A stretch of 64,000 bases of DNA. It comes from a virus. The position numbers and the translations under genes are program-made. Of this stretch, positions 3,453-57,000 are shown one piece after another; the first letter of the stretch is position 1; each line of letters starts with the position of its first letter. The stretch lies in IMG/VR virus record IMGVR_UViG_3300037200_000158, positions 1-64,000 of that record; one strand, 5' to 3'. Under the pieces are notes generated by a model. The model was not told the origin of the DNA. It saw only the letters and a list, made by a program, of their open reading frames with translations, and did no database searches.

Positions 3453-3719
3453 TTACTTCTTCGGATCGTAGTGTTTCGCGAGATCATCGCCAGATAGCAC
3501 GAAGATATCGGTTTTCCAGTTGCCGGTCCAGGCGAGTAACAGAAGATCGTCCAGTTCGGCCCTCTTCACGATTGCATCCTTGCCTGTTCGGTCGTGCGCG
3601 TATTCCGCGTCACCGTTGACCGTGACGAGGATTAGTGTCATTTTGGCGTTGTTGCGGATGCCAGAAGGCGGTACGGAGTCGCCACCCAACACCCTGAAGT
3701 TCTTCGGATTGAAGATCAT
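3453..3719 (-). CDS. hypothetical protein
   Basis: Track ORF 3453..3725 trimmed to ATG 3719, which forms an ATGA overlap with the recombinase stop. Confidence 0.6.
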   Translation of the reverse strand: MIFNPKNFRVLGGDSVPPSGIRNNAKMTLILVTVNGDAEYAHDRTGKDAIVKRAELDDLLLLAWTGNWKTDIFVLSGDDLAKHYDPKK

Positions 3720-4291
3720 TTCCACCCCTTCAAGCGCTTGCCGGTGCTGTCGCGGCGCTTGTTCGTGATCTTCGCGTAGATCGCAGTATTGGCAATATTC
3801 GCGTGTCCAAGGTGATCCTGCACATCCGCAATGTCCTCGCCATGTTCGAGTAGCGAGGTTGCACAGCTGTGCCGCAGCGCGTGGAAGTGTGCCTTATCCG
3901 GCTGGATTCGAGCGGCCGCACAATACCGCTTCATCAGCACATCCAGCATTTGCTGGCTGATCGGCTGTCGGAAGCGAGACAGGAAGATCGGGCCCTCTGC
4001 TTCGCCACGCTCCCGCAACCAGGCGCGCAACGATTTCGTTTCGGCCTCGGTGAGGATATATTCCCCGCTGGTGTCAACGGCTCCGCACTTCAGCCGGTGG
4101 ACATACAGGCGCCCGACAGCCGGCCTATAGTCACCCATCTGTAGCAATCCAACCTCGGATGCACGCAACCCGCGGTGATAGGCCAGCCGGAAGATTGCGC
4201 GATCCCGCGGCGCTTCGATGACCGCGAAGAGCCGGTTAAGCTCCTCGTCGGTCAGATATTTGATGTTGCGCTTGCTTAATAGCCGAGCCAT
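3716..4291 (-). CDS. tyrosine recombinase, catalytic domain only (191 aa)
   Basis: Catalytic signature visible: AYHRGLRASE (Arg), HALRHSCAT (H-x-x-R), LGHANIANTAIYAKI (His...Tyr). No N-terminal core-binding domain; the size resembles FimB/FimE-type recombinases. Confidence 0.9.
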   Translation of the reverse strand: MARLLSKRNIKYLTDEELNRLFAVIEAPRDRAIFRLAYHRGLRASEVGLLQMGDYRPAVGRLYVHRLKCGAVDTSGEYILTEAETKSLRAWLRERGEAEGPIFLSRFRQPISQQMLDVLMKRYCAAARIQPDKAHFHALRHSCATSLLEHGEDIADVQDHLGHANIANTAIYAKITNKRRDSTGKRLKGWK

Positions 4292-5228: not shown

Positions 5229-5237
5229 TGTATTACA
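5229..5237. promoter_or_regulatory. TGTATTACA palindrome
   Basis: Perfect 9-mer. Its last base lies 9 nt before ATG 5246. Confidence 0.55.
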
Positions 5238-8733: not shown

Positions 8734-8763
8734 GAAATATTTGTACCATGAATCGGCCTGTTG

Positions 8764-8772
8764 TGTATTACA
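8764..8772. promoter_or_regulatory. TGTATTACA palindrome
   Basis: Perfect 9-mer in the divergent spacer, 9 nt before ATG 8781. Followed by CAATTG. Confidence 0.55.
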
Positions 8773-8780
8773 ATTGGCCA

Positions 8781-9722
8781 ATGTCGGTAAGTCACGAGTT
8801 CAGGCAGGGCGATGTAATCGAACGGCTTCGCGAGATGCCAGACGAGAGTATCTATTGCTGTGTGACCTCGCCGCCATATTGGGGACTGCGGGATTACGGC
8901 GTTGAAGGGCAGATCGGGCTCGAAGCGACGCCACAGGAATACGTCGCGAAGATGGTCGAGGTATTCAGCGAAGTGCGCCGGGTGCTCCGCAGCGACGGGA
9001 CACTGTGGCTGAACCTCGGCGACTCTTTCAGTGGTGGCAAGATGGGGCGCGCGGATGGCGACCGTAACGGGGTGGACGGCTTCACTGGGGGCCAGAAGTT
9101 CAAGGGCGAAGAGTTTCGGCAGCGCGGCGTACCTGATGGCCTGAAGCCAAAAGACCTCGTTGGAATTCCGTGGCGCGTTGCCTTCGCCCTTCAGGACTCT
9201 GGCTGGTGGCTGCGATCAGACATCATTTGGGCGAAGCCCGCGCCGATGCCCGAGAGCGTCACAGATCGGCCGACGCGGAGCCATGAATACATTTTTCTTC
9301 TGGCAAAGTCAGAGAAGTACCACTGCGACATGCAGGCAATCGCAGAGCCTGCCGTGCGCGGCGCTGCCGGTTCGCTTTTCAATGCAGGCAAGACCGCCAT
9401 TCGCCAACTTGGACGGTCGAGCGATAAAGAGCGCGTAGAATCAGAAACCCGCAACAGGCGCGACGTGTGGACCGTAAACGGCGATCCATTCCCCGAAGCC
9501 CACTTCGCCACCTTTCCGCCTGCGCTAATTCTGCCCTGTATTCTCGCGGGTTGCCCCGCTGGCGGCACAGTGCTCGATCCTTTCAGCGGTGCAGGCACAA
9601 CGGCGCTGGTGGCGACCGAGAATGGCCGCAACGCGGTGGGCATTGAGTTGAATCCGGATTACATTGCCATCGCCGAGCGCCGCCTGGCACAGCAACCGCT
9701 TCCGCTGGAGGCTTCCGCATGA
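8781..9722 (+). CDS. DNA methyltransferase (N6A/N4C family, SPPY motif)
   Basis: CVTSPPYWGLRDY (motif IV), then the C-terminal SAM motif VLDPFSGAGTT. Track ORF trimmed to MSVSHEF. Confidence 0.9.
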   Translation: MSVSHEFRQGDVIERLREMPDESIYCCVTSPPYWGLRDYGVEGQIGLEATPQEYVAKMVEVFSEVRRVLRSDGTLWLNLGDSFSGGKMGRADGDRNGVDGFTGGQKFKGEEFRQRGVPDGLKPKDLVGIPWRVAFALQDSGWWLRSDIIWAKPAPMPESVTDRPTRSHEYIFLLAKSEKYHCDMQAIAEPAVRGAAGSLFNAGKTAIRQLGRSSDKERVESETRNRRDVWTVNGDPFPEAHFATFPPALILPCILAGCPAGGTVLDPFSGAGTTALVATENGRNAVGIELNPDYIAIAERRLAQQPLPLEASA

Positions 9723-11326: not shown

Positions 11327-11541
11327 ATCACCTGCTCGGCCTCGCGAAGACGCAGCAGGAACTCCTGTTCATCGCCAGCCTGCTGGCCGCTTCGCCCTTC
11401 GGTAACAAGGGCGGTCCCGAGACTGCGCGCCTGATTCGCGAGCAACTCGCTCACTTCCGCGCTCTGCCGCGGCATGTCGATTCCTACGAAGACGAAGAAG
11501 ACGAATGTCTCAGGCCCACTGGAGCGACCCCGCCGCTGTAA
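11323..11541 (+). CDS. hypothetical small protein upstream of terminase
   Basis: 72-aa track ORF. Its position suggests a possible small-terminase-like role, but no motif supports this. Confidence 0.5.
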   Translation: MNHLLGLAKTQQELLFIASLLAASPFGNKGGPETARLIREQLAHFRALPRHVDSYEDEEDECLRPTGATPPL

Positions 11542-12338
11542 TTAGTCCCGTCGATGCGCTAGCTGAGATCGATCGGGAATTGAAGGGGGTTGAGGATGAG
11601 CGGAAGCGGCGGAGCCTAAACCGGATAGAGACATTCTTCAATGCGACGGGACCGCACCGTCGGGAACTCTACCCGCGCCATATGGCGTTCTTCCGCGCGG
11701 GGAAGTATTACCGTGCCCGCTGCTTCTCGGCCGGCAATCGCACGGGGAAAACTATTGCCGGTAGTTTTGAACTCACGTTACACCTCACGGGCCGGTACCC
11801 GGATTGGTGGCCCGGTAGAAGGTTCGACACCGCTGGACTCTACTGGGCATGCGGCACCACCAATGAGACCACCAAGAACATTCTCCAGGCTGAATTGCTC
11901 GGTCGTCTTGAAAAGGATACATCGGTCGGCGAGGACGTAATCGGAATGGGGACAGGGATGATCCCGGCTGCCGATATCGCGGGCGTTGAGTTCCACGCGC
12001 AGATCAGGGGCGCAATTAAGACGGCCTGGATAAGGCATGTGAGCGGCAAGCGCAGCGAGTTGGGGTTTCGCTCCTTCGAAGCTGGCCAGCCCGCCTTCGA
12101 GGGCGTTGCGAGGCAGGGAATACTTTTGGACGAGGAGCCGCCCCTTGATGTCTACACTGAGTGCCTCATGAGGCTTATGACGACCGGGGGCTGTCTCATG
12201 TTGACTTCCACCCCGCTCAAGGGACTCACTGATGTCGTAGCTCAGTTCATGCCCGATGGCGTTGTGCCAGAGTGGCAGACATGCAAAGTCTGCGGTAAGC
12301 AACTGATGGACTTTGATCACGCCTGCCCCGTGGAATGA
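11505..12338 (+). CDS. terL: terminase large subunit, N-terminal ATPase part only
   Basis: Walker A FSAGNRTGKT, Walker B GILLDEEPP, coupling motif LTSTPL. Ends after a CxxC...C tail with no nuclease domain. Confidence 0.85.
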   Translation: MSQAHWSDPAAVISPVDALAEIDRELKGVEDERKRRSLNRIETFFNATGPHRRELYPRHMAFFRAGKYYRARCFSAGNRTGKTIAGSFELTLHLTGRYPDWWPGRRFDTAGLYWACGTTNETTKNILQAELLGRLEKDTSVGEDVIGMGTGMIPAADIAGVEFHAQIRGAIKTAWIRHVSGKRSELGFRSFEAGQPAFEGVARQGILLDEEPPLDVYTECLMRLMTTGGCLMLTSTPLKGLTDVVAQFMPDGVVPEWQTCKVCGKQLMDFDHACPVE

Positions 12339-12680
12339 GGTAAAAGGGTGTCCTACCCCTTCTCATCTGGCTCGCCAAGCGCGCGGCCCGCGAGCGCAAG
12401 AACCCCTGGAAGCCCGACGGCGCAGTCCCCGAAACCCAAATCCCGGTTTAACCCGAAAGCAGGCCCACCACGAAGAGACTCCTTCTTCTCGGTGCCCTGC
12501 TGGTCCCCCTGTCGCGCCCGGCAGCAGCGCCCGAGCAATTCACCTTTATCGACCACTGGAACCGTTTCGTCGATCCGATGAACGAATACATGGACGGCGT
12601 TAACCGCGGCGTGTTTCGCGCGGACAAACTGAAGCAGGCGCTGCAAGCATGGCGCCGCCTCGAAAAAGAGCAGAACTGGA

Positions 12681-13226
12681 ATGACCTCCGTTAGAACAAT
12701 CCTTGCCGCTTTCGCCTTCACCGCGATCGCAGCCGCTCAAGCCGTCTTCCCGACCACCACGCTCAAGGTGGCCCTGACCGGCTGGCCGTCCGCAACGCAG
12801 CCGCAGTTGGTCGTCTACCTGACCTCGACTGCGGCCTATGTGCCCGGGCAACTTCCGGTCTCGAACTCCGGCATCGGGGATCCATCCGGCCATACTTCGC
12901 AGATCCTCATGGTGGACCGCGAGGCGATGTGCATCGACGGCCCAATCCAGCCCGACGGCGGATTGCCCGTAGAGCGCGGCTGTCAGGGTTCGTACATGCA
13001 GGGGCATGCGGCCGGCGCAACGGTCTACGTCGGTTTCCCGAGTTACTACGCATGGACAGTGCCTTCGGGGGCCTGCAATGCTCCGACGCTGCCGGTGCTG
13101 CCGACGGTCTACATCCAGAATGCGGGCGTGTACAACTGCATCGGCGGGACGTGGGTCTATACCGGGCAGGTATCTGGCGCTGGGCCGTGGTATTCGCGGT
13201 TCGGGCATTGGGTCGTAGGTCATTAA
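12681..13226 (+). CDS. secreted protein (cassette inside split terL)
   Basis: 181-aa track ORF. Signal-like MTSVRTILAAFAFTAIAAAQA. Confidence 0.65.
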   Translation: MTSVRTILAAFAFTAIAAAQAVFPTTTLKVALTGWPSATQPQLVVYLTSTAAYVPGQLPVSNSGIGDPSGHTSQILMVDREAMCIDGPIQPDGGLPVERGCQGSYMQGHAAGATVYVGFPSYYAWTVPSGACNAPTLPVLPTVYIQNAGVYNCIGGTWVYTGQVSGAGPWYSRFGHWVVGH

Positions 13227-13227
13227 T

Positions 13228-13473
13228 ATGAGAGATCACGCGAACATCATCGCTTCACTGGTTGCCCTGAGCCTCGTCATCGCGACGATTCTGGCGCTGA
13301 CCTACCACGGACTCAAGGACGAAACGCTGGTCGCTATTCTGGCCACCGGCGCGGTCGGAATCGCGAACAGCATCGCAGGCGTGAAATCCGGCGCACCGCC
13401 TCCGCCCGCGAATGGCAACGGCAACTCCCCGGGTCAGTACGCGGTTTCCCAGCAGAATCAACCACCGGCGTAG
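13228..13473 (+). CDS. small membrane protein (two TM segments, holin-like topology)
   Basis: 81-aa track ORF. IIASLVALSLVIATILAL and LVAILATGAVGIANSIAGV. Confidence 0.55.
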   Translation: MRDHANIIASLVALSLVIATILALTYHGLKDETLVAILATGAVGIANSIAGVKSGAPPPPANGNGNSPGQYAVSQQNQPPA

Positions 13474-13501
13474 GCCGCATCCCAATTTCAAAGGAAAAGC
13501 A

Positions 13502-13894
13502 ATGGCAGAACGCGAGAGCAAATCGAAATCGGCCGCCGGAATGGTGACGGCCTCAGCAACGAAGATGGGACCGATGAAGCATAACTTCGCCCGCATCGAG
13601 ATCCATCCTGCGGCGAACGGCTTCACGGTCATGCACCACAAGCCGGCGCCCGAAGGCAAGAAGGGCGAGATGGGCTGGATGCCACCGCCCGAACCCGAAC
13701 AGAGCGTCTTCGGCGGCGAAGATGCGCAGGGGCAGATGCTGAAGCACATCGGGATGCTCGTCGGTAACGGCAAAGCACCCGGCAACAAGGACGACAAGAC
13801 CAAGTCCGGTAAGATGGAAGGCGCGGACAAGAAGGACATGGGCAAGAACGACTCGCCCAAAGCCGATGACGAAGGCGACGAGGAAGACGAATAG
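13502..13894 (+). CDS. hypothetical charged protein
   Basis: ATG 13502 with AAGGAAAAG upstream (MAERESKSKS...). Acidic C terminus. Confidence 0.55.
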   Translation: MAERESKSKSAAGMVTASATKMGPMKHNFARIEIHPAANGFTVMHHKPAPEGKKGEMGWMPPPEPEQSVFGGEDAQGQMLKHIGMLVGNGKAPGNKDDKTKSGKMEGADKKDMGKNDSPKADDEGDEEDE

Positions 13895-13995
13895 CCTTCT
13901 GACGATTCAGGTGCCGAGGTAAGTCGCCGGTAATCGGCGCATCGGTGCCGGGCGCTCGCAGCATCCGGGTTTCCCTCCTTACCTCGGATTCCTTC

Positions 13996-14037
13996 GGCTG
14001 TCGGCCGAACGGTTCGCCGCGAGCGCCTTTTTTCTCT
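13996..14037 (+). terminator. probable intrinsic terminator
   Basis: Imperfect GC-rich hairpin (GGCTGTCGGCCGAAC/GGTTCGCCGCGAGCGCC) followed by TTTTTTCTCT. Confidence 0.45.
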
Positions 14038-14128
14038 GAATCTGCGCGGTATAGAGCGGCGGGAAATCCGCCGACGGGGCTCTGACGATTCTTCCCTTCA
14101 TTGATTCCGCGCGGATTTGGAGGTAGAG

Positions 14129-14137
14129 TGTATTACA
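14129..14137. promoter_or_regulatory. TGTATTACA palindrome
   Basis: Perfect 9-mer, 12 nt before ATG 14149. Also overlaps the alternative ATG at 14137. Confidence 0.55.
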
Positions 14138-14148
14138 TGGAAAACACG

Positions 14149-14706
14149 ATGAAGCGCCGCGCATTCTTCAGCTTGTTCGGGGCCGCACCGCTGGCCGTTG
14201 CCGCGGTGCCGGAGTCTGTGCCGGCAAAGCCGCTGTCCACTCGCCGCGCTCTGCTGCCCGAGGAGATCGTCCAGGCTGCGCTCGTTCGCATGGGTTCACT
14301 CCAAATTGGTCGTTATCCGGCTCCGGAAGAGGTGACGTTCGCCCTTATGCGCCTTATGCCGGGCATGGACGATGCCGACCTGGCCAAGGTGCTTGCGCCG
14401 TACTATCCGACTACCGCGGATTTGGCCGTGACCCAGCCGGTACAGTACGGCACCACGATCCCGCAGATGTGCGTGAAGTGCGGCGGCGCGCTGATGGCCA
14501 TGTCATTCCGCTTTCCTGATGCCCGCCGGATCATGCAGTGCTCTGGTCCAGGATGCGAAAATCATCATCCATGGGTTCAGAACGGATATGCTCTATCTGG
14601 TCCCGCGTGCAAGCCTGTCGGCCAGGTAATAGTCAATAGCCGTGGCGAATTCTGGGTGTGCGCTATCGCGGATAGCTGGAAAGTCAACGCCCCGGTGGCG
14701 CGATGA
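14149..14706 (+). CDS. exported protein with twin-arginine-like signal
   Basis: MKRRAFFSLFGAAPLAVAA..., with Cys pairs later in the sequence. Track ORF trimmed (alternative start 14137). Confidence 0.6.
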   Translation: MKRRAFFSLFGAAPLAVAAVPESVPAKPLSTRRALLPEEIVQAALVRMGSLQIGRYPAPEEVTFALMRLMPGMDDADLAKVLAPYYPTTADLAVTQPVQYGTTIPQMCVKCGGALMAMSFRFPDARRIMQCSGPGCENHHPWVQNGYALSGPACKPVGQVIVNSRGEFWVCAIADSWKVNAPVAR

Positions 14707-14921
14707 CCCGGACCCCGCTCGATAGTTCCCTGGTGCAGGCCGTTTCGCACGATCCCGCGACGAACACCGCGCAGGTAGAGCTCCTGCACAAAGGCACCTA
14801 TGCCTACCACGACGTACCGCCCGAGGACGTACAGGCGCTGATCGGCGCTAAATCAGCGGGCGCGCACTTTAACGGCGTGTTTAAGGCCGCGCACGGGCAT
14901 AAGGCGAGGAAAGTCGCATGA
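14703..14921 (+). CDS. KTSC domain protein
   Basis: 72 aa. SSLVQAVSHDPATNTAQVELLHKGTYAYHDVPPEDVQALIGAKSAGAHF matches the KTSC pattern. ATGA overlap. Confidence 0.65.
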   Translation: MTRTPLDSSLVQAVSHDPATNTAQVELLHKGTYAYHDVPPEDVQALIGAKSAGAHFNGVFKAAHGHKARKVA

Positions 14922-15157
14922 AATATCAGGGAAATCCCGTCATCGTCGATGCGGAAGTAATCGAAAAGGTTGACTCGCCAGATGGATCTGGGTACCGACT
15001 CATCCTGCACACCGGAGGGTCAATGTTCGCGTCCGCCGGGATGTGCGCCAGAATGGTGCCGGTTCCCGGCGATTATGTAGTCACGCAGGCGGATGGATAC
15101 GTCTACCTGAACCCGAAGGATGTCTTCGAGCGCAAGTACAGCCCGGTGACCGAATGA
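14918..15157 (+). CDS. hypothetical small protein
   Basis: 79-aa track ORF. ATGA overlap. Confidence 0.55.
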   Translation: MKYQGNPVIVDAEVIEKVDSPDGSGYRLILHTGGSMFASAGMCARMVPVPGDYVVTQADGYVYLNPKDVFERKYSPVTE

Positions 15158-15408
15158 GATCAACGCATACCTACGTCGTCATGGAACTCAGCCCGGCGGC
15201 GCATGCCGAGATTAAGGCGAAGATGCTGGCGGCTGGGTACCAGCACGCGATTGACGGCGATACGATTGACATGCACGGGATCGCGGTTGAGCCCAAGAAA
15301 AAGATCTTCAGTCGCCGAGAGCAGTTAGTCGCCGTTGTTATTGCCGCTCCGCTCTCGCTTATGGCCGCTTACATACTTCTCCACTTAACGAAAATCCCAC
15401 TCTGGTAG
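15154..15408 (+). CDS. hypothetical protein with C-terminal TM segment
   Basis: ATG 15154 (ATGA overlap) within track ORF 15043..15408. LVAVVIAAPLSLMAAYILLHL. Confidence 0.55.
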   Translation: MRSTHTYVVMELSPAAHAEIKAKMLAAGYQHAIDGDTIDMHGIAVEPKKKIFSRREQLVAVVIAAPLSLMAAYILLHLTKIPLW

Positions 15409-15504
15409 TCGTCAGTCAGGCGGTAAGGCTCCGGAACCTCTCAGGCCTGAAACTCTCGGTCAGATGATGACCGCTTATGGGCCCGGCGCACGACTAAAAC
15501 TCAC

Positions 15505-16266
15505 ATGGCTTACAGTTATCTCGGGCAACGCTACGTCGTCCAGGCTTCGTGGGAGGACGCCGCTGCCCACTTGACCCAGGAAGCGCGAGAGGAATTGTGG
15601 TCCTCGATCCCCGAATACCAGCGTGATGCTCGCTCAAAGGGTATTCCGCAGTTGGGCGCAGGTGCCATTTTTGCAATTCCGGAATCTGAGATCGTCGTCG
15701 AGCCGCTAAAGGGCGGCATCCCGGCGCACTGGCCGCGCGGGTTCGGCATGGACCCTCACTGGTCGTTCACTTCGGTCACCTGGTGGGCGCAGGACCCTGA
15801 GTCCCTGACCTGCTACATGTACGACGAATACCAGCGCGAGAAGCAGCCTGTCGGCGTCCATGCGGCTTCGATCAAAGCCCGCGGCGACTGGATCGTCGGC
15901 GTGATCGACAAGGCAGCCGATCAGACCGAAGGCGACGGCGAGAAGTTGCTCGAAATGTATCTGCGCGCAGGACTGCATGTCGTGAAGTCTTCGGCCAGCA
16001 AGGGCGTTGACGCCGGGCTACAGGACATGCTCGACGCGATGCACGAAGGGCGCTTCAAAGTCTTCAGCACCTGTCAGAAGTGGATCAAGGAATTCAGGAT
16101 CTACCGGCGCAACGACAAGGGCGTGATCGTTAAGAAGGCTGATCATCTTTTAGACTCGTCACGCTATTTCTGGAACGATGGTCGCGCGTTGATGCGCGTC
16201 AAGCCGAAGCAGGCGAACTTCCGTCCTTCCGCCCCAATCGCATCTCCCCGCGCATGGATGGCCTGA
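15505..16266 (+). CDS. terL: terminase large subunit, C-terminal nuclease part only
   Basis: YVVQASWEDAAAHL...DARSKGIPQLGAGAIF...GFGMDPHW...VIDKAAD...DHLLDSSRYF is collinear with the post-ATPase linker and RNase-H-like nuclease of TerL proteins. Confidence 0.85.
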   Translation: MAYSYLGQRYVVQASWEDAAAHLTQEAREELWSSIPEYQRDARSKGIPQLGAGAIFAIPESEIVVEPLKGGIPAHWPRGFGMDPHWSFTSVTWWAQDPESLTCYMYDEYQREKQPVGVHAASIKARGDWIVGVIDKAADQTEGDGEKLLEMYLRAGLHVVKSSASKGVDAGLQDMLDAMHEGRFKVFSTCQKWIKEFRIYRRNDKGVIVKKADHLLDSSRYFWNDGRALMRVKPKQANFRPSAPIASPRAWMA

Positions 16267-16268
16267 CC

Positions 16269-16277
16269 TGTATTACA
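16269..16277. promoter_or_regulatory. TGTATTACA palindrome
   Basis: Perfect 9-mer, 10 nt before ATG 16287. Confidence 0.55.
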
Positions 16278-16286
16278 ATGGACGGC

Positions 16287-16799
16287 ATGAGAATTTCCGA
16301 CATCCGCTTGCTCGGCGACCAGGTTTTAGTTAAATGCCTCGGCACGGCCAACATGCAGGGCCGCATCCACATTCCGATGTCCGCCCAGCAAGCCCGGCAG
16401 ATCCATCAGTCAGGCGGCGACTACGTTCATCGAGGCGAAGTGCTGGCGGTTGGCCCCGGCGACCGCATGGACTGGTTCTGGTGCCGCGCCAGCGAGGAAG
16501 TCACGCCGCGCCTCGTCGATTCCATCTTCAAGATCGTCGGCGGCGACACGAAGCAGGTTGTCGCAAGCAATCCGAAGTGCCACACATGTGGCGGAAAGTT
16601 GACCCGGCGCAATCTGGCTCCGAGCCGTTCGCCGATGCCGGTCAAGGTCGGCGACGTGGTGCTGTACGAGCGGCGGCGCGATGCAGTGCTTCAGATTCAG
16701 CGGTTCCCATCGCTCGATCTGGAGGACGATATGCTCGTGATTCTGCTCGCTGAGCAGCACGTATTGGCCGTCCTGGAGTCCGAAGCTAAAGCTGCATGA
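16287..16799 (+). CDS. GroES-like co-chaperonin with internal insertion
   Basis: MRISDIRLLGDQVLVK...GEVLAVGPGDR...VKVGDVVLYE...MLVILLAEQHVLAVLE follows the GroES pattern. A ~55-aa Cys/His-containing insert sits in the middle. Confidence 0.6.
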   Translation: MRISDIRLLGDQVLVKCLGTANMQGRIHIPMSAQQARQIHQSGGDYVHRGEVLAVGPGDRMDWFWCRASEEVTPRLVDSIFKIVGGDTKQVVASNPKCHTCGGKLTRRNLAPSRSPMPVKVGDVVLYERRRDAVLQIQRFPSLDLEDDMLVILLAEQHVLAVLESEAKAA

Positions 16800-18204: not shown

Positions 18205-20478
18205 ATGGCACAACCCCTTTCGTCGGGACCGAACCGACACTCCACGAAGGCCACGGGCAAGGATCGTCCCGTCCATGACGCCAGTATTGCGCCGGTAATC
18301 CGAGACGGCGAATCCTCTTCTGTCCGCACCAGCCGCACGAACGATAAAGGACTGGTCATTGTTTCTGCGACCCGCCAGCCGGAAGTTATCGCCGATCCCG
18401 AAGAGGAATTCCTTTCGAAAGCCCGCGAGCGCTTCGCCCGGGTAGTTTCCTCTGAGAACGACTGGCGCCGGGACGCAAAAGAAGAACTCGACTTCACCGA
18501 CGGCCTGAAGCACTGGGACGAAACAATGCGCGCCGAGCGCACTGGCCGCCCCTGCCTCACCTTCGACCGCATCACCCCCGCCGTAAAGCAGGTCGTCAAC
18601 GAAGCGCGGCAGTCTCCGCCAGAACCGGAAGTAGCACCGGTCGGCGGCGGAGCGGATAAGGAAACCGCCCAGGTCATTCAGGGCCTGTTCCGCAACATCG
18701 ACAACGATTCAGGCTCCGACACTGTCTTCATGACGGCGTACGAGCACGCCTGCAAAATCGGGCGCGGCTGGTGGAGAATCCTGTTCGACTGGGAGACTGA
18801 CGATCCCACTTCGCAGGAAGCCTTCCTGCAGAAGCTGATGCTGAAGCGGATTCCGAATCCGTTTTCGATCTACGTCGACCCGGCCTGCCTCGAATTCGAC
18901 TACTCGGACATGGACTTCCTGTTCCATACCGAGGACATTGACCGCGACACGTTCAAGGAACTCTACGGCGAAGATGCCGAGCGCACGCTCGAATACTTCG
19001 GTGCCGGCGTCACCTTCGAGGCCACGGGAGACCGGATACGCAGCGACTGGTTCCCGAATGGGGCCATCCGCGTCGCCGAGTATTGGTACAAAGAACGCAC
19101 GAAGCGGACGATTCATCTTCTCGAGGGCGGCCGCGTCGTCGAGGATGCCGAGCTCTACGATGCCACGCCGGTAGCAACCCGCGAACTCTTCGAAACGAAG
19201 ATCTTCTGCTGCAAGATGACCGGCGGGGATGTAATCCGCCGGTGGGAGTGGCCCGGTAAGTGGATTCCGTTCGTTCCGGTCATCGGCGACGAGATCTGGA
19301 AGAACGGCAAGCGCACCGTCCGCGGCATGATTCGCCCGGCGATGGACGCCAACCTGTCTTACGACTTCATGCGGTCGAAGCAGGCGGAATCTATCGCGCT
19401 TGCTCCGATTTCCCCGGTAATGGCCGCAATCGGCTCCCTCGGGCAGTTCGAGAGCATGTGGGCAGATGCCAACCGCAAGGCCTATGCGGTGCTTCCGTAC
19501 CTTACTGAGGTCAACGGGAAGCCGGTACCTCCTCCGCAGCGCCTGAACACGGCTGACGCGCAAGTACAGGCCATTACGCTCGCGATCGCTCATGCCGAAA
19601 ACGACATCGAGGCGATGACGCAGACGTACAAGCCCGATCTCGGAGCTCCACAGGCCGAAGCGTCAGGACGGGCGATTCTTGCGCGACAGCGAGAGGGCGA
19701 CAACGCCCACTTCAACTACCACGACAACCTGGCGCGGTCGATTCGCCGTACTGGGCTGATCGAACTGGACCTCATTCCGGTCGTCTACAGCGAAGAGCGG
19801 GCGATTACGATCTTCGACCCGGACCAGAGCGTTCGTTCGGTAACGATCAACGCTATGACGCTCCACAAAGGCGCTCAGCGTATCTTCGACCTCGCGCAAA
19901 CGCACGGCGCGGCGCGGTACGACGTTGTCATGAAGTCGGGACCATCGTATGCAACCCGCCGGCAGGAAGGCGCGGCGGCCTTGATGGACCTCATCAAGTT
20001 CATCCCGGGTCCAATGTCACGAGCGCTGGACCTGCTCGTCGGCTACCTGGACATCCCGGATCAGGACGCACTCGCGGCGCGGTTGCGGCCTGCGGACATC
20101 CCGACCGATGATGGCCCGACCATCCAGCAGTTGACGCAGCAGAATCACCAGATGCAGCAGTTGATTCAACAACTGACGCAATCGGTGAACGCGCTAAGCG
20201 ACAAGACGGCGGCAGAGCGGCTGAAACTGGCATCGCAGGAGCGCACTGCGATCCACGGAGACTTTGCGGGTATCCTCGAAGCTCTCATCAAGGCGAAATC
20301 CAGTGGGGCGGAAGCGTTACTGTCCGAAGTGGCAGAGACGCTCCGCCAGCGAGAAGCGCAACTCGCGGCAAGCCAGGAAACGGCCAATCCAGACGCAGCG
20401 GGAAGTCAGCCGCAGGGGCAGCCAGCGGCACAACCGCAGGCCGCGCCGGGTCCGGCGGCACCTTCAGCCTCTTCGTAG
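18205..20478 (+). CDS. portal protein
   Basis: 757 aa, positioned after the terminase. WRRDAKEELDFTDGLKHWDE...RTGRPCLTFDRI...VVNEARQS...IQGLFRNI matches the conserved portal N-terminal pattern of P22/T7-like phages. Confidence 0.85.
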   Translation: MAQPLSSGPNRHSTKATGKDRPVHDASIAPVIRDGESSSVRTSRTNDKGLVIVSATRQPEVIADPEEEFLSKARERFARVVSSENDWRRDAKEELDFTDGLKHWDETMRAERTGRPCLTFDRITPAVKQVVNEARQSPPEPEVAPVGGGADKETAQVIQGLFRNIDNDSGSDTVFMTAYEHACKIGRGWWRILFDWETDDPTSQEAFLQKLMLKRIPNPFSIYVDPACLEFDYSDMDFLFHTEDIDRDTFKELYGEDAERTLEYFGAGVTFEATGDRIRSDWFPNGAIRVAEYWYKERTKRTIHLLEGGRVVEDAELYDATPVATRELFETKIFCCKMTGGDVIRRWEWPGKWIPFVPVIGDEIWKNGKRTVRGMIRPAMDANLSYDFMRSKQAESIALAPISPVMAAIGSLGQFESMWADANRKAYAVLPYLTEVNGKPVPPPQRLNTADAQVQAITLAIAHAENDIEAMTQTYKPDLGAPQAEASGRAILARQREGDNAHFNYHDNLARSIRRTGLIELDLIPVVYSEERAITIFDPDQSVRSVTINAMTLHKGAQRIFDLAQTHGAARYDVVMKSGPSYATRRQEGAAALMDLIKFIPGPMSRALDLLVGYLDIPDQDALAARLRPADIPTDDGPTIQQLTQQNHQMQQLIQQLTQSVNALSDKTAAERLKLASQERTAIHGDFAGILEALIKAKSSGAEALLSEVAETLRQREAQLAASQETANPDAAGSQPQGQPAAQPQAAPGPAAPSASS

Positions 20479-30091: not shown

Positions 30092-30100
30092 CGTATTACA
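30092..30100. promoter_or_regulatory. CGTATTACA (8/9 palindrome family)
   Basis: Ends 8 nt before the 5' end of the tRNA-like gene. Confidence 0.45.
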
Positions 30101-30107
30101 CTGTGGC

Positions 30108-30180
30108 TTCGGTGTGGCGCAGCGGTCAGCGCGTCGGCCTCATAAGCCGAAGGTCGTGGGTTCGAGTCCCTCCACCGTTA
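30108..30180 (+). tRNA. tRNA-Met-like (CAU anticodon), imperfect stems
   Basis: Hand fold: D arm GCGC-AGCGGTCA-GCGC, anticodon arm TCGGC-CTCATAA-GCCGA, variable loop AGGTC, T arm GTGGG-TTCGAGT-CCCTC (one U.U mismatch). The acceptor pairs only 5 of 7 positions. No encoded CCA. Confidence 0.55.
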
Positions 30181-51070: not shown

Positions 51071-54000
51071 ATGCCCGACACTGATATTTGGGATATAGCG
51101 GCAGCCGCGAAGAGCGCGCCGCCCCCCTCCGCTGACATCTGGGATATTGCCGCGTCTACGCCAGGGTACCGCTCGCCCTACAGTCGTGAGGCGATGGAGG
51201 CTAACGCGCCCGGCGTGCCGAAAGCACCGTTGCCATATGAACTGCAGAAGCCGGATGAGCAGGCGGAAACAAATCGCGCCGGCGGGTCCACGTTCCAAAA
51301 TCCACGAACTGGGAGAATCTATCCGCGCCAGCAGCCCGGCAGTGAGAGTGGCCCATTGTCGGCGTTGGATCTCCCGATTCAGGCACCGGGCCACGCAGCG
51401 GAAGCTGTCGAGGCACTGGCGACACCAGCCGAAGACGCCGCGATGCAGATTGCTGCCGGTGTTCCACCTGCGCAGGTCGCCCTAAGTCCCGAATCTCTCA
51501 AGGCCGGAGCTCGCGGTGTCGCAAAGGGCATTCAGGCGGGATTAGAGGCCGCAACGCCATTACTCGCTGGTGGAGCTGCAGCCGCGCCGCTCGAAACAGC
51601 CGCCACGCTCGCGTCCGCCGCATTTGCCCAAGCGAAGACCGAAGATCTCCTGAAGCAGGTCGGGGTAGCGCCGGAGTACTCGGAACTCGCCGGAAGTGTC
51701 GCCGGGCTGCTCGCTGGTTACGCCGCCGGGAAGATTCGGCTGAGCCCCGAACAGGCATCGCTGATCGAGACTCTGCAAGGCAAGGATGCGCAGACACCGG
51801 AAGGGCAAGCCGCGCGAGTCCATAAACTTCAGGCTATGGCCAGCGACCCCGGAGCATCGCAGGGAGAGCGCGATGTAGCGTCGGCACTCCTGAAGCGAAA
51901 CCACGGCATCGAGTTCGAGCCGTTTCGGCCTGCGGAAGCGCCCGCTGCGCCCGAGAGCGCCGCTAGTACCCCAGCGACCGCTGAAACGCCACAGGCCGCG
52001 CCTGAGACGCCAGCGGCCCAACCTGAAGCGAACGCCGCTCCGGCTGAGACGAACGTTCCCGGTTTCGAGACGCGCGAGATCCTTCCCGAAGACGTGAAGC
52101 CCGGCGCAATCCTTCGGGACGCCAACGGACGAACAGGCGTTGTCACCGAACTTCGGCAGGGGAAGAATGTCAAATGGACGGACGATACCGGCGCCGAACG
52201 CACGACTACGCTGCCGAAGTTTCTCCAGCGGATGACAGCGATCGCGCAGACTCCCGCAGCGTCGGCACAGCCAGAAGCGCCCGTTAGCCCGCCGGTCGGC
52301 ACCGCCCCTCCGACTGAGCAGAATCAGCAACCCGCAGCGCCGCAGGTACAGGAAACGCCCACTTTAGGCGCCAACCTCCCGCCGGAGCAAATGCCCGGCC
52401 CGGCAGTCACGCAGGCTGGCGCGGAGAATACGGAGCACGTCGAGAAAGAGGTTCAGGCTGCGGAAGCGGTCGCGCCGCCTGCAACGGCGGTTGAAGCGCC
52501 AGCAACTCCGGTTGTAGCCGCACCGCCGCCCGAGCTCCCGCACACGGTCGAAGCACTCCCTCCCAACGAGGAACCGAAGGAAGCCGAAGCGCCCTACAAG
52601 TTCTCGTCCGCGCAAGTCAATCTGCCGACAGCCTATCACCGCGCGTTCACGGATGCGGTTGCCGGGATTCCAGACTCCGAACTCGCCGAGGACGGACGTG
52701 AAGACGATCCCCACATTACCGCTCTCTACGGGATTCATTCCACGTCAGCCGAACCCGTCAAGAAGCTCCTGAAGGATCAGGGGCCTATCACGGCGACCAT
52801 TGGCCCGATCTCGATCTTCAAAGGCGAAGACGGAAAGCCGGATGTCGTCAAACTCGATATCGACTCGCCCGCACTCCACGATCTGAATGGAAAACTCCGC
52901 ACGTTGGAGCACACGAATAACGTCCCGGACTACACGCCACATCTGACCTTGGCCTATTTGAAGCCGGGCGAAGGCGCAAAGTACGTCGGGAAGGTCGTGC
53001 CGGGGCTTACCGGGCAGCAGGTTACGTTCAACCGTCTGATGTTCAGCGGCAAGGACCAGGCACGCACGGATATCCCGCTCGCAGGCCAAACGAAGCCGGA
53101 GCGTCCGCGCGCCATCGAAGAGTCCGCGCCCGAAGCGCCCTCCGGTGAATTCGGCAAGTCCTCCCTTTCCCGCCTGAGCGACAAGGAAATCCGCGCAGCC
53201 GCAGCGAAAGACGGTATCGACCCGGAACCATACCTCGCGGAGCGCGCCGGCCCCGGCGGCAACCGCACCGGGCGGAACAAGTTAGAGCACGCGATTTTTG
53301 AAGCGGGAGAAGCCCGCAAGGCGAAGGGGGTGATCCAGCCGAACGCAGAAGCGCCGGCAGCCGCGCCAGTGGAGGCGGCTCCGGGGAAGACGAAGGCAGA
53401 GCAGATTGCGGCGAATGAGGCGCGCATCCGCGAACTGGAGTCGAAACTCGGCGCATCCGGCACCGTTCCGGCCACGAAGCCAAATCCGACGACAACGAAG
53501 ACGGTCCAGCAGTTGCGCGGCATCGCCGACACGCTCGACAAGCAAATCGAGGCGAAGCGGAATCCCGCGATAGCGCAGCAGAACCCGACGAGGCGACGCG
53601 CAGACATCGCCGCCGGTATGGCGAAAGAGGCCGACGCGATGGAGTTGGTCCAGTCCACGCTCCGCAATCTCGCCGACGCCCACGAGAACGGCTCTATTCC
53701 ATCGGTTCTGACGAACGTAAAGACGCGACCGCTTCTCGAGGACCTTCTCAGCCGCGACAAATTCCCGCAGGCGTGGCTGCACAGCGCGACCGTTACTCAC
53801 ATCACCACCGCGCTGAAGGGCAAGCCGAACACCAAGGAAGCAGTTGATCTCTTGACGCGCCGAAATGGTGGCGATGGCGTGCGCCTGACGGGCATGAAAG
53901 AGATAACGCTCGTCAGAGACCTGCTGGATAAGGCTGACGCCGCCGGGATCGGCCCAGCGAAGTACGCGAAGGAGGAACTCGCTCGGGCGACACGCGCATA

Positions 54001-57000
54001 CGGCGCAGGGTTGACGCCAGAGAATTGGCTCCAGGCTCATCAGGCGCTGAAGCCGTACGCAACCACAAAATCCGTTATACCTCCGAAAGAGCGCCAGATC
54101 GCAGAACTTGAACGTGGTCTGATCGGACGCAAGATCGAAGGTTTCTTCCCGACACCGAAAGCGCTCGCCGACAGAATGGTCGAGGAAGCGGACATCAAGC
54201 CCGGTATGCGAGTACTCGAACCGAGCGCCGGAAATGGAAGGCTTGCCGACGCTATCGCGAAAAAGACGGATGAACTCACCGCCATAGAGCCGGTGTCCGA
54301 CCTGCGCGCCATCCTCGACCTGAAGGGACACGCAGTTTCTGAGGACCGCGACTTTCTTGCGCACCGCGGCGAATACGACCGTGTCGTGATGAACCCGCCG
54401 TTCGAGAACGGGCAGGATATGGACCACGTCCGCCACGCTTTCGACCTCCTGAAGCCGGGCGGGAAGTTGGTCGCCATCATGGGCGAAGGTGGTTTCTTTC
54501 GCGGCGACAAGAAGGCGACGGCGTTCCGTGAATGGCTCCAGGCTCACGGGGGCACGAGTGAAAAACTGCCAGAAGGCACGTTCAAAGAGAGCGGCACTGG
54601 CGTAGCCACGCGTCTGGTAACGGTCACGAAAGCGGCCGCCACGAAGGAAGCGCCCGCAATAGCCCGAGCGCCGGCCGAAACGCCGAAGCCGAAAACCGCG
54701 CCGCTTCCCGAGGCGGACTACGCCGAAGTTGAGACCAAACTGGCGAATTCCGAAGCGGACCTCCGGGCCGCACGCCAGAACTACGAACGCCTGGACGATC
54801 TCTTCCGCGTCGTCAAAGATGCCACGGAGCGCGAACTCTCCGGCATCGACCTTCAGGAGTTCTCACGCGTTAAAAACTTAGACGAGGTAGAGGAAGATGT
54901 CCGCAAGCAACTGATTCTCGCGGGCCGCAAGTACGAGGCGGCAATGACGGCGCACGACCAAGCCCTTAATGCGGCCGCTGCGGTAAATCCGCTCCTGACG
55001 CCGCAGGCAAAGCCGATAGGTCCCGGCGTGCCGGTGCCCGAGGCTAAGGAAGCGAATAGCTCGCTTGGCGGAACAATCGACGAGGTGTCCGACCAGATCA
55101 AACTCATGGCGCGGCGTGGCGCTGATGATGCCGAGTATGACCCGCGCGACGATGTCCCTGATCTGAAAAGCAGCCTGAAGTTCCTCGATGAAGATATCCG
55201 CGATCTGGAGCACGCCGATCCTGCCTTGATGGCAACTGCGAAAGAGACTGCCGCGACCGCACGCAAGGTCATCGAGAGCGCGGAATCGTATACCGTTCCG
55301 CCGCCGAAGCCGGAACCGTCAGCCGACAGATACCGCGAACTCGACGCGCAGGTTAAGGCGATGCACAAGAACCCGGCGTATGCCGAGGACACGCCCGAAG
55401 GGCGACGGTTGCGCAATCAGGCGCTGGAGCTCAGCGACGAAAAGGAAATCCACCGTCCGGCATTCGTTGAAGAAGTGAATGCGGAGAGTATTGCCAAAGC
55501 CAAAGCGGAGCCGAAGGGACTTCCCGCGCCAGCACAGCGCGCCGTTGACGAGTTGAAGGACCTGGAGGCGGACGCACAGAAACTTCGCTCCACTGACTTC
55601 TCAAAGATTGACGCCAAAGACCCGGTAGCGAAAGAGGTTTCTGAAGACGCGCTGAAGACTGCCAAGCTCAAGGTCGATATGCGGAAGTTGCCCGGCTCCG
55701 CGCCGAATGCGCCGGAGCGAGTGGGCGAGTTCGATGCCTATCCGAAAACTGGGACCGTCACGATTCCCGCTGCGACCGCGAAGCAGATTGTCCCGCCTCT
55801 AAAGAAGGTAATCGAGGCCAAATCGACCATCCCGATCCTGAAGAACGTCTCCGTCATCAGCCAGAAAGGCAAGACGAAGATCACGGCGACCGATCTGGAG
55901 CAGGCAGTCACGTTCACGATCCCGACGAAGGCCCCGAACAGCGCAGTCACCATCCCGGTATCGGCTCTCGACCAGGCGATGAAGGCGAAGAACAAGGGCG
56001 ACCTGAAGATTGACTTCCAGCCCGGTACGGTCCCATCGCAAAACGGAAAGGCATCACTATCGGTCGGCCCGGCAGAGTCCAGCGCGGCTACGCTCGACAT
56101 CTCGAATTACCCCGAGATCCCCACGGCCACTGAGAAGGTGGGTAAGATTCCGGCGGAGAAGCTGCTGGACGCCATCAAAAAGACGTTCTACGCAATCTCC
56201 GCAGAAGAATCACGGTTCACCCTCAACGGCGCATTGTTAGAGGTTAAGGGCGGCAAAGCGAACATGGTGGCAACTGACGGCCATCGGCTCTCGGCTCAAT
56301 CGTTCGACGTTCCTGGTATTGAAGGTGACCATCGCTTCCTACTGCCGCGCCGGACACTCGACACGATGACAAAGTTGTACGCGAAGCATGCGGGAGACCT
56401 GACGGTTAACGCTGGCACTGGCGCAAGTAAGAAGTTCCTGACATTCGACACGCCCGACGGCACAACCTCGCTCTACACGATGCAGTTGGATGGGAACTTC
56501 CCCGACTACCAGCGCGTACTGCCGAACCCGCGCAACTACACGCATACGGCCACGGTGGACCGCGAAGAACTGCTCGACCTCATGAAGCGTATTATCGCCA
56601 TGAAGGAGCGCAGCAACAACGTTCTCCTGTCGTTCCGCCCCGATCAGGTGATTGGGTTCAAGTCGGCAGACGGCGCGGAAGTCAGGGGATCGGCACCGGC
56701 CACGCTGAAGACGCTTCCTGTGCCTAAACCTGAAAAGGACGAGGTTCAGCAAAATACCGAGCGCCGCCCGAACCCGCGCGAGAACTTCAACGCAAAGTAC
56801 ATCGCTGACGCCATTGCGCCGCTCGAAGGCAAGAACGTCGAGATCAACCTTCAGGATTCCAGCACCGCGCGCAATATGGGCGCGATGACCATCAGAGATC
56901 CACAAGACCCGAACCACACGGCAATCATTATGCCGATGCGGGACGACGTGGGGAACTGGGACGACGGGCTACCGCCGGTGAATCCGGTAAAAGAAGAGGG

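Follow-up and report, generated by a model that had tools for sequence, protein, structure and literature searches.

The large terminase subunit, TerL, is the textbook single-chain, two-domain motor of DNA packaging. The mechanistic models proposed for it, namely the electrostatic inchworm of T4, the lid and linker coupling of Sf6, and the lid rotation of P74-26 and D6E, rely on covalent continuity between ATPase core, lid, and nuclease. Here we analysed a 64,000-nucleotide stretch of viral DNA (positions 1 to 64,000 of the IMG/VR record IMGVR_UViG_3300037200_000158; hereafter the window), in which the gene for TerL is present as two open reading frames (ORFs), terL-N and terL-C. The locus probably encodes a functional two-polypeptide terminase, the junction of which has become a cargo hotspot. 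Single-chain TerLs of the P22/Sf6 type, represented by the P22 gp2 nuclease (4DKW) and by D6E TerL (5OE8), are like the window in fold, in catalytic motifs, in the neighbourhood of a P22-type portal and coat, and in a C-terminal ...WM tail. Compared with them, the window has two genes, cut between core and lid and parted by 3.2 kb of other genes, and its ATPase domain would come from two polypeptides.

Other divided genes offer further points of comparison. The nrdA gene of Aeromonas phage Aeh1 is split by the free-standing homing endonuclease gene mobE, and its pieces, like those of T4 gp39/gp60, reassemble non-covalently. The two exons of herpesvirus UL15 flank UL16 and UL17, intervening genes that lie on the opposite strand, and are joined by the spliceosome. 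Extra genes of phages (morons) gather at hotspots between core genes, for example at the defence hotspots of P2 and P4. In phages, terL interrupted by introns or inteins has been described for the Jug phages (PMC12880540), Lelliottia phage phD2B (PMC4246154), and N4-like Vibrio phages (PMC3670811). In the literature that we searched, there are only intron, intein, and homing endonuclease cases, with no two-gene TerL cut between core and lid and no cargo between halves; a description beyond the searched texts is possible. Half genes of this kind are visible in databases under labels such as 'terminase large subunit domain-containing protein', but the split has apparently gone unremarked.

terL-N (11505..12338, + strand, 277 aa) encodes the ASCE (additional strand, catalytic glutamate) ATPase core. 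It matches Pfam Terminase_6N (E 2.7e-11) and phrog_31467 (E 1e-58), a 261-position profile labelled 'unknown function'. An earlier note on this DNA, made from the letters alone, had read Walker A, Walker B, and coupling motifs and a CxxC...C tail in this ORF, and all of them are there. Specifically, Walker A (GNRTGKT, residues 77-83) is at 11733..11753, Walker B with the catalytic glutamate (ILLDEE, residues 206-211) at 12120..12137, and the coupling or C motif (TSTP, residues 234-237) at 12204..12215, all on the + strand. The three motifs are present in 64 stand-alone N halves, with N78, R79, G81, and K82 of Walker A, D209 and E210 of Walker B, and T234 and P237 of the C motif invariant.

terL-C (15505..16266, + strand, 253 aa) encodes the lid subdomain, the linker, and the RNase H-like nuclease. 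It matches Pfam Terminase_6C (E 4.4e-10) and phrog_5653 (199 positions), and a sequence search aligns residues 50-244 with the P22 nuclease domain of known structure, 4DKW (E 3.5e-20). The nuclease domain (15652..16236, + strand) contains the catalytic residues D83, D135, D213, and D217. These aspartates, and the lid residues as well, do not vary among 64 stand-alone C halves. The observation that this ORF takes up TerL at YVVQASWED (15532-15558) and carries the nuclease aspartates is therefore borne out; QRDARSKGIPQLGAGAIF follows at 15619-15672. The N-terminus MAY[SK]YLG is conserved and comes after a stop codon in relatives, and terL-C retains the conserved ...WM tail of single-chain family members. 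ATPase and nuclease are thus found on two ORFs 3,166 bp apart rather than on one polypeptide.

Fused homologues searched against the window match only at the terL-N and terL-C loci, with contiguous query ranges. Specifically, residues 13-237 of P0071 match 11571-12269 and residues 247-458 match 15523-16170, while the query ranges of P0104 are residues 8-238 at the N locus and 235-465 at the C locus. In a tblastn search of phage records, the match of the N half to EBPR podovirus 1 (query 18-256) ends 7 codons before the match of the C half (query 9-234). Because fused homologues match both ORFs, end to end, terL-N and terL-C are complementary, abutting, and non-overlapping parts of one TerL. 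Alignment with the full-length proteins places both halves in the same family and defines the break point: the N half ends ...FMPDGVVPE and the C half begins MAYSYLGQRYVVQASWED. At this point the fused proteins have a linker of 10-20 residues, variable in length and sequence. Neither the search with fused homologues nor domain scans of the large ORFs found a second terL in the window, so a full-length copy, which the earlier note had considered as another source of the function, is absent from these 64 kb.

The alignments place the break between the ASCE core and the lid, about 45 residues upstream of the boundary between ATPase and nuclease. This placement follows from three lines of evidence. 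The P22 nuclease domain begins at residue 50 of terL-C. When fused relatives are made into a profile, the segment just past the break (...atWDD...) aligns to D6E TerL from residue 200; searching PDB sequences with only the N half found nothing but chance matches, and this profile was needed. Finally, the ATPase domain of D6E TerL consists of an ASCE subdomain and a lid subdomain, the lid including Y213-R224 with the named residues Y213, M216, and R224, and its linker spans residues 230-241 (PMC5727402). With the break at this position, terL-C carries lid, linker, and nuclease together with a strand. Residues 1-49 of terL-C (15505..15651, + strand), comprising the strand YVVQASW and the lid helices according to the profile alignment to D6E TerL, correspond to part of the ATPase domain in single-chain TerL. 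The earlier description of separate ATPase and nuclease ORFs therefore stands as to the two ORFs but not as to their division, as the break precedes the lid and the supposed nuclease ORF also carries lid and linker.

W16, H22, R43, K45, G46, and G51 of the lid segment are among the most conserved residues of stand-alone C halves, and the first five are invariant. The AlphaFold2 (AF2) model of terL-N alone is confident, with a mean predicted local distance difference test score (pLDDT) of 88 and a predicted template modelling score (pTM) of 0.85, and its best folds in the PDB are the D6E and Sf6 TerLs. In the model of terL-C alone, the nuclease is confident and matches 4DKW in fold (E 3e-16, TM 0.84), whereas residues 1-50 have low confidence (block means 48-85), as expected of a segment that needs a partner. 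In Foldseek, the terL-C model aligns to full-length D6E TerL across 226-249 columns, exceeding the nuclease domain alone.

At the site where fused relatives have the variable linker, terL-N ends in a 21-aa tail of the form W-x2-C-x2-C-x9-H-x-C (CCHC; 12273..12335, + strand). From its sequence, the tail possibly binds zinc, and it could be a docking or DNA-binding element; its AF2 pLDDT is 66-77. It is kept, with minor variants, in about ten related clusters (P0002-P0009, P0016, P0019), and is absent in P0010-P0015, in more distant split forms, and in fused forms.

The earlier note had proposed looking in related genomes for an intact terL or for the same split, and both were found. We fetched 168 related loci and scored them with a custom tblastn script. 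terL is fused in 86 of the 168 and split at the same junction in 71; the other 11 have the N half only, three of them too near a contig end to judge. Counting only loci with both halves, 71 of 157 are split at the same junction. Among the best 150 representatives of an exhaustive library at 50% identity, N-only proteins ending at the junction number 69 and fused proteins 65. The best 120 homologues of the N half mostly have 220-285 aa with PF03237 only, most homologues of the C half have 235-260 aa with PF17289 only, and fused proteins of about 400-485 aa are a minority among the best homologues of each half.

The distance between the halves varies from overlapping stop and start codons to 5.3 kb. 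The codons overlap in about 34 split loci, for example in Azorhizobium caulinodans ORS571 (prophage at 935-952 kb) and Acidovorax sp. A1169. In other loci the gap is 64-370 bp, 0.5-1.1 kb, or 1.3-2.7 kb (the last mostly in Mesorhizobium prophages), and the longest, 5.3 kb, is in Bradyrhizobium sp. dw_78 (L101). GenBank record MW202785.1, a metagenomic record deposited as the complete circular genome of a 40-kb podovirus, has two coding sequences for a 'large terminase protein' of 255 and 243 aa, 133 bp apart; it is the only such 'complete genome' with this split among the records opened. The adjacent genes of A. caulinodans, Acidovorax, and MW202785.1 share with the window the family, the break point, and a separate start of the C half. 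Unlike the halves of the window lineage, which are 2.5-4.2 kb apart, theirs overlap or lie within about 130 bp. In adjacent-split relatives, the frame of the C ORF relative to the N ORF varies, and the C ORF starts with Met in a conserved peptide (MPEIS.SKY..., MAYKYLG...). These features indicate that each half has its own initiation and that frameshifting does not join them.

In a neighbour-joining tree of N halves, split forms occur in several clades, the window clade stands beside fused Bryobacteraceae sequences, and a fused trio lies within a split clade. The tree, which carries no support values and is to that extent a weak point of our account, suggests repeated fission and/or re-fusion of terL in the family. 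An orphan terL-N of 249 aa without a C half is found at 8001-8750 of L007 and 3323-4072 of L008, among toxin-antitoxin genes beside an operon for cytochrome oxidase, and is probably what remains of a prophage. In the cultured Xanthomonas phage DES1 (L171, OK624832.1, 2387-4720), terL is divided at another position, within the ATPase, and an ORF of 165 aa lies between the parts; this interruption is probably of the intron or homing endonuclease type.

The lineage of the window is represented by L001, from a metagenome-assembled genome at NCBI, by L002-L004, from Logan runs, by L174, and by L175, which begins inside the cassette and provides the downstream part only. The layout in L001, L002-L004, and L174 is terL-N, 2.5-4.2 kb of small genes, a KTSC gene, a small ORF, terL-C, and, further downstream, the P22-type portal gene. 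The N half is 65-68% and the C half 48-80% identical to the window. Synonymous sites among the relatives are saturated, with a proportion of synonymous differences (pS) of 0.6-0.86. The ratio of nonsynonymous to synonymous differences (pN/pS) is 0.19-0.52 for both halves, and the corresponding ratio of substitution rates (dN/dS), where dS is estimable, is 0.09-0.29 for the halves versus 0.12-0.16 for the portal. Both terL halves are under purifying selection.

The recurrence of the layout bears on the simplest explanation, an assembly chimera or a sequencing error. Its sole point is that the window is a metagenomic contig. The same arrangement is found in at least five independent assemblies from different sources, and the exact protein is recorded by two sources, JGI and Logan, which leaves an artefact of this kind with practically no probability.

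The same data bear on the proposal, raised in the earlier note, that a recent insertion destroyed terL and left a defective prophage or an element that depends on the terminase of a helper phage. Some relatives are clearly decayed, L007/L008 with their orphan N half amid host genes being an example; an N half alone is seen in 11 of 168 loci, including the three near contig ends; L052 resembles a frameshifted copy inside a fused clade; and the function in two pieces is deduced from sequence. We nevertheless regard destruction of the gene as quite improbable. The split and the cassette are kept across relatives with saturated synonymous sites, under purifying selection on both halves, the catalytic residues are invariant, and about half of the family shares the break point. 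No insertion scars were found at the cassette. Besides an integrase gene, the element carries genes for portal, coat, and other virion proteins, and the split is present in circular-mapping genomes. Specifically, the phage of L002/L004 was assembled as a 97,953-bp contig in two runs, with 100% identity over the shared stretch; the two assemblies begin at different points, which indicates a circular-mapping genome. Its N half is present on 24 contigs. MW202785.1 and the mini-intein that close relatives retain in Walker A of the N half are further signs of live phages with a split terL.

The reading that we prefer, a working terminase of two polypeptides, starts from what is established, namely the anatomy of the locus, the abutting homology, the distribution of the split, the conservation of catalytic residues, and purifying selection; of the two possibilities offered in the earlier note, it is the one favoured by comparative evidence. 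terL would be expressed as TerL-N, the ASCE core, and TerL-C, containing lid, linker, nuclease, and ...WM tail. The first approximately 49 residues of TerL-C, the YVVQASW strand and the lid helices, would dock non-covalently on TerL-N and complete the ATPase domain, and the TerL-N/TerL-C heterodimer would do the work of a normal TerL protomer within the ring that packages DNA at the portal. The break falls in a linker that is variable in single-chain relatives; this site may tolerate fission, which may have occurred or been reversed several times. Once terL consisted of two genes, the junction would have been an intergenic site between two conserved essential genes and could gather extra genes. 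In the window lineage, the junction holds a partly conserved, partly variable block of genes for small secreted or membrane proteins together with the KTSC protein.

Several points weigh against this reading. We infer, rather than observe, the physical association of the halves and their packaging activity. To our knowledge, all solved and characterised TerLs are single chains. When the ATPase and nuclease domains of T4 gp17 are expressed separately, they reportedly keep partial activities, and no translocation is reconstituted. There is no obvious Shine-Dalgarno sequence at terL-C. The split examples are mostly prophages or metagenomic contigs; the cultured phages of this family that we checked (RHph_N3_2, KG853, JB8, Chlorobiaceae phage, EBPR podovirus 1) all have a fused terL, and no isolated plaque-forming phage with this split is among the records opened. 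Finally, a second terL is possible on the approximately 30 kb of the 94,480-bp source contig that lie outside the window.

Both genes might also be functional without forming a stable TerL-like protomer. TerL-N alone would then translocate DNA, in the manner of phi29 gp16, and TerL-C would be a separately recruited headful nuclease and portal adaptor. Consistent with this, the N half folds confidently by itself, discordant N and C identities among relatives suggest independent exchange of the halves, and, should the TGTAWTACA sites described below be promoters, the halves may be transcribed separately. The lid segment, however, travels with the C half and is among its most conserved stretches (QRDARSKGIPQLGAG; R43, K45, and G46 invariant), and N and C halves are paired in nearly all loci with room for both. 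In D6E TerL, the lid touches the P-loop arginine, to which Y213 is hydrogen-bonded (PMC5727402), and a break within one ATPase domain argues for an intimate complex. We consider independent action of the two proteins unlikely but not negligible.

The discordance is as follows. Window and L174 are 68% identical in the N half and 80% in the C half, while window and L002 are 66% identical in the N half and 48% in the C half. The C halves form two deep groups, and the N halves look star-like (L001, L002, L174, and L175 versus the window). This pattern hints that the halves have been exchanged independently by recombination.

A further possibility is that the split is healed after the DNA level, by splicing of a giant intron, by trans-splicing of a split intein, or by excision of the cassette in lytic growth. 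There are precedents: in many phages, group I introns, inteins, and homing endonuclease genes interrupt terL (PMC12880540; PMC4246154), and one terminase gene is described as containing a naturally split intein (PMC2677866). The family is itself rich in Walker A inteins. A mini-intein of about 137 residues sits exactly in Walker A (GNR/C...SHN/CGKT) of P0002, P0014, and P0015, which are 85% (P0002) and 66% (P0014, P0015) identical to the N half of the window, and intein-like insertions occur in 31 of 150 family representatives. At the junction, the picture is different. Adjacent-split relatives have no extra sequence whatever there, which argues against both splicing and excision. Rfam searches found no intron, either in the whole window at the gathering threshold or in 11400-16400 at E<=1, where a chance miRNA match was all that came up. 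We therefore give healing of the split very little credence.

Candidates for a mobile or recoded junction were tried and rejected, or returned nothing. A split intein does not fit, as terL-C has 6 residues before the alignment to fused TerL, leaving no room for a C-terminal intein half (IntC), and many split relatives lack the 21-aa tail of terL-N. The cassette ORFs that were run against Pfam and PHROGs, a set without the possible ORF c0 described below, yielded no recombinase or endonuclease domain, and there are no flanking direct or inverted repeats at 12338/15505, only short chance matches around the cassette. A transposon or integrative element was rejected on the absence of edge repeats and of a recombinase domain in the cassette. 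As to frameshifting or readthrough, an ORF at 12348-12581 is in frame past the stop of terL-N, but it is Pro/Ser/Arg-rich and resembles high-GC noise. The earlier judgement that this is not an intron, an intein, or a frameshift is thus in agreement with Rfam, the alignments, and the junction frames.

These results also set the locus apart from the described cases of interrupted genes. In the phages with intron- or intein-bearing terL, the gene likewise consists of several ORFs, and splicing of RNA or protein restores one chain; the window has no detectable splicing element. Fractured genes with split inteins (PMC2677866) are likewise phage genes in two pieces with foreign ORFs between them, but the window has no intein halves at the break, trans-splicing is not expected, and the known terminase case is the gp17-like gene of myoviruses. 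As in UL15, coding parts for terminase ATPase and nuclease are separated by complete genes; UL15 is spliced into one polypeptide. There is a likeness also to nrdA of Aeh1 and to T4 gp39/gp60, in which an essential phage enzyme is encoded by two ORFs and its parts associate without ligation; one relative of the window, L086, has an HNH gene in the gap. Unlike a gene broken up by a homing endonuclease, the window has a cassette without a detected endonuclease domain, which comprises many genes and is old, and the split is widespread and not limited to a single phage.

The region between the halves (12339..15504, + strand, 3,166 bp) contains seven or eight co-oriented genes according to ORF calls and has a G+C content similar to its surroundings. 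Eight or more genes had been noted here; seven are clear + strand ORFs, mostly tightly packed or overlapping (several by ATGA), and the possible eighth, c0, has no canonical start codon. c0 is an 80-codon open frame at 12452-12694 with a signal-peptide-like start (KRLLLLGALLVPLSRPAAA) and a helical tail, and no ATG, GTG, or TTG precedes the hydrophobic stretch. Either this frame is a gene that uses a non-canonical start, or it has decayed.

The first clear gene, c1 (12681..13226, + strand), encodes a predicted secreted protein of 181 aa with a Sec-type signal ending AAAQA. Its homologues (secreted, about 190 aa, 54-62% identity) lie between the terL halves in L001 and L174 and upstream of terL-C in L175, and its ratios of the pN/pS type are 0.19-0.34. 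c2 (13228..13473, + strand) encodes 81 aa with two predicted membrane helices. c3 (13502..13894, + strand) encodes about 130 aa with a Lys-rich and acidic C-terminus; homologues of 40-57% identity lie between the halves in L001, L002, and L174 and upstream of terL-C in L175. c4 (14137..14706, + strand), the true start of which may be the ATG at 14149, encodes 189 aa with a predicted twin-arginine (KRRAFF) signal; its sole match in the relatives, weak and confined to the N-terminus, is in L174 (34% over 94 aa).

The KTSC protein that the earlier note had recognised in the cassette is c5 (14703..14921, + strand, 72 aa; PF13619, E 2e-14). Its homologues are found one or two genes upstream of terL-C in all five relatives, with 63-73% identity. 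c6 (14918..15157, + strand, 79 aa) is 53-58% identical to the first approximately 76 residues of the gene before terL-C in L001, L174, and L175, and a homologue is also found upstream of the fused terL in L014 and L089. c7 (15154..15408, + strand, 84 aa) has a predicted C-terminal membrane anchor and an ATGA overlap with c6. PHROGs and PADLOC gave nothing useful on the function of the scanned cassette proteins.

Four of these genes (secreted, 52-62%; acidic, 40-57%; KTSC, 58-73%; c6-like, 49-58%) are common to four or five relatives at 40-73% identity, and their divergence is roughly equal to that of the terL halves; for c2, c7, and the possible c0, no homologue was detected in related loci. 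Because four genes are shared and have co-diverged while the others are unique, the intervening block appears from its homologues to be old and co-diverging, with local turnover. It does not look like a fresh insertion, and the notion of one newly inserted cargo cassette does not survive this comparison.

The signals that had been read as the cassette's own fare no better. In the only sizeable non-coding gap of the region, a pattern scan finds a weak terminator-like hairpin with a T run (14012..14037, + strand). The scan gives 7 such sites in total versus 7.6 expected, and the fold z-score of this hairpin is -0.12, so it has no statistical support as a terminator, the structure being within chance expectation. 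The TGTATTACA element at 14129..14137 (+ strand), which precedes c4, is one of nine exact copies of the near-palindrome TGTAWTACA in the window. With a chance-level hairpin and a genome-wide motif, neither terminator nor TGTATTACA is evidence of an autonomous unit.

Gene content at the junction differs more widely in the rest of the family. We scanned the gap ORFs of related loci with Pfam and PADLOC. The gap of L130 (10646-11911) encodes a protein with a RelA/SpoT domain that matches the candidate defence family PDC-S33 (E 9e-102), those of L147, L154, and L161 encode periplasmic solute-binding proteins (SBP_bac_6), and that of L101 (10845-13220) encodes BrnA and HigA-like antitoxins. An HTH (helix-turn-helix) protein is encoded in the gap of L150 and one HNH endonuclease in that of L086. 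Gene content therefore differs between the same conserved flanking genes, which defines an accessory-gene (moron) hotspot, and in the window lineage part of the gap genes is shared and part is unique. The gap content is as expected of such a hotspot. Like the P2/P4 hotspots, it holds variable cargo, including toxin-antitoxin modules and the PDC-S33 candidate; unlike them, it lies inside a normally single essential gene.

The exact copies of TGTAWTACA are at 5229, 8764, 10324, 14129, 16269, 20702, 32082, 42327, and 50935, and none of 100 shuffles reached this count. Copies with one mismatch are at 30092 and 40140. The copy directly after terL-C is at 16269..16277 (+ strand). An ATG follows every exact copy at a distance of 7-14 nt, and the gene for tRNA-Met (30108-30180, + strand) has a one-mismatch copy 7 nt ahead of it. 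L001 has two copies, whereas L002, L174, and L175 lack the motif. From these positions, TGTAWTACA looks like a lineage-specific, −10-like promoter element that gives leaderless or short-leader transcripts.

Immediately downstream of terL-C is a gene for a Cpn10/GroES-like protein (16254..16799, + strand; PF00166, E 1e-5; likely start ATG 16287), which is 54-56% identical in L001-L004. The P22-type portal gene (18205..20478, + strand; phrog_156, E 2e-115) lies beyond terL-C with five small genes in between, and the portal is 76-80% identical in relatives. In L005 and L006, terL-C adjoins the portal gene. As small genes part terL-C from the portal gene as well in the window lineage, its packaging module is loosened as a whole.

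The window also encodes a tyrosine integrase (3716-4291, − strand), an N6/N4 DNA methylase (8748-9722, + strand), a P22-type coat protein, and a giant polyvalent protein. Judged by its genes, the element is a temperate phage of the P22-portal/coat type of roughly 95 kb; the related genomes have 91-98 kb. The ORF at 51071-59509 encodes 2,812 aa with DNA polymerase III beta-clamp domains, a 2H-phosphoesterase/Acb1-like (anti-CBASS) domain, and a methyltransferase domain, and its product looks from these domains like a phage 'polyvalent' injected protein. L006 has a comparable protein of 2,385 aa with SLT and LPD domains.

The interest of the split terL comes chiefly from its wide occurrence and from the position of the cut inside the ATPase domain. 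A natural cut between core and lid is a ready system to test which of the couplings in the motor require a continuous chain, and it is a natural design for split or conditional terminases. It is also a warning for pipelines that use terL as a marker in virus detection and phylogeny, since half-length genes are labelled 'hypothetical' or 'domain-containing'. The junction is a previously unlisted hotspot in which to seek phage-borne defence and host-interaction genes. On balance, it seems likely, with somewhat less assurance than for the locus itself, that a large, hitherto undescribed share of the P22-type terminases work naturally as motors of two chains, with the cut between ASCE core and lid. 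In such motors, ATP hydrolysis would be coupled to the lid across a protein–protein interface and not, as current models of packaging have it, inside a single chain, the junction would be a recurrent hotspot for secreted proteins, toxin-antitoxin modules, and defence genes, and the halves would recombine independently.

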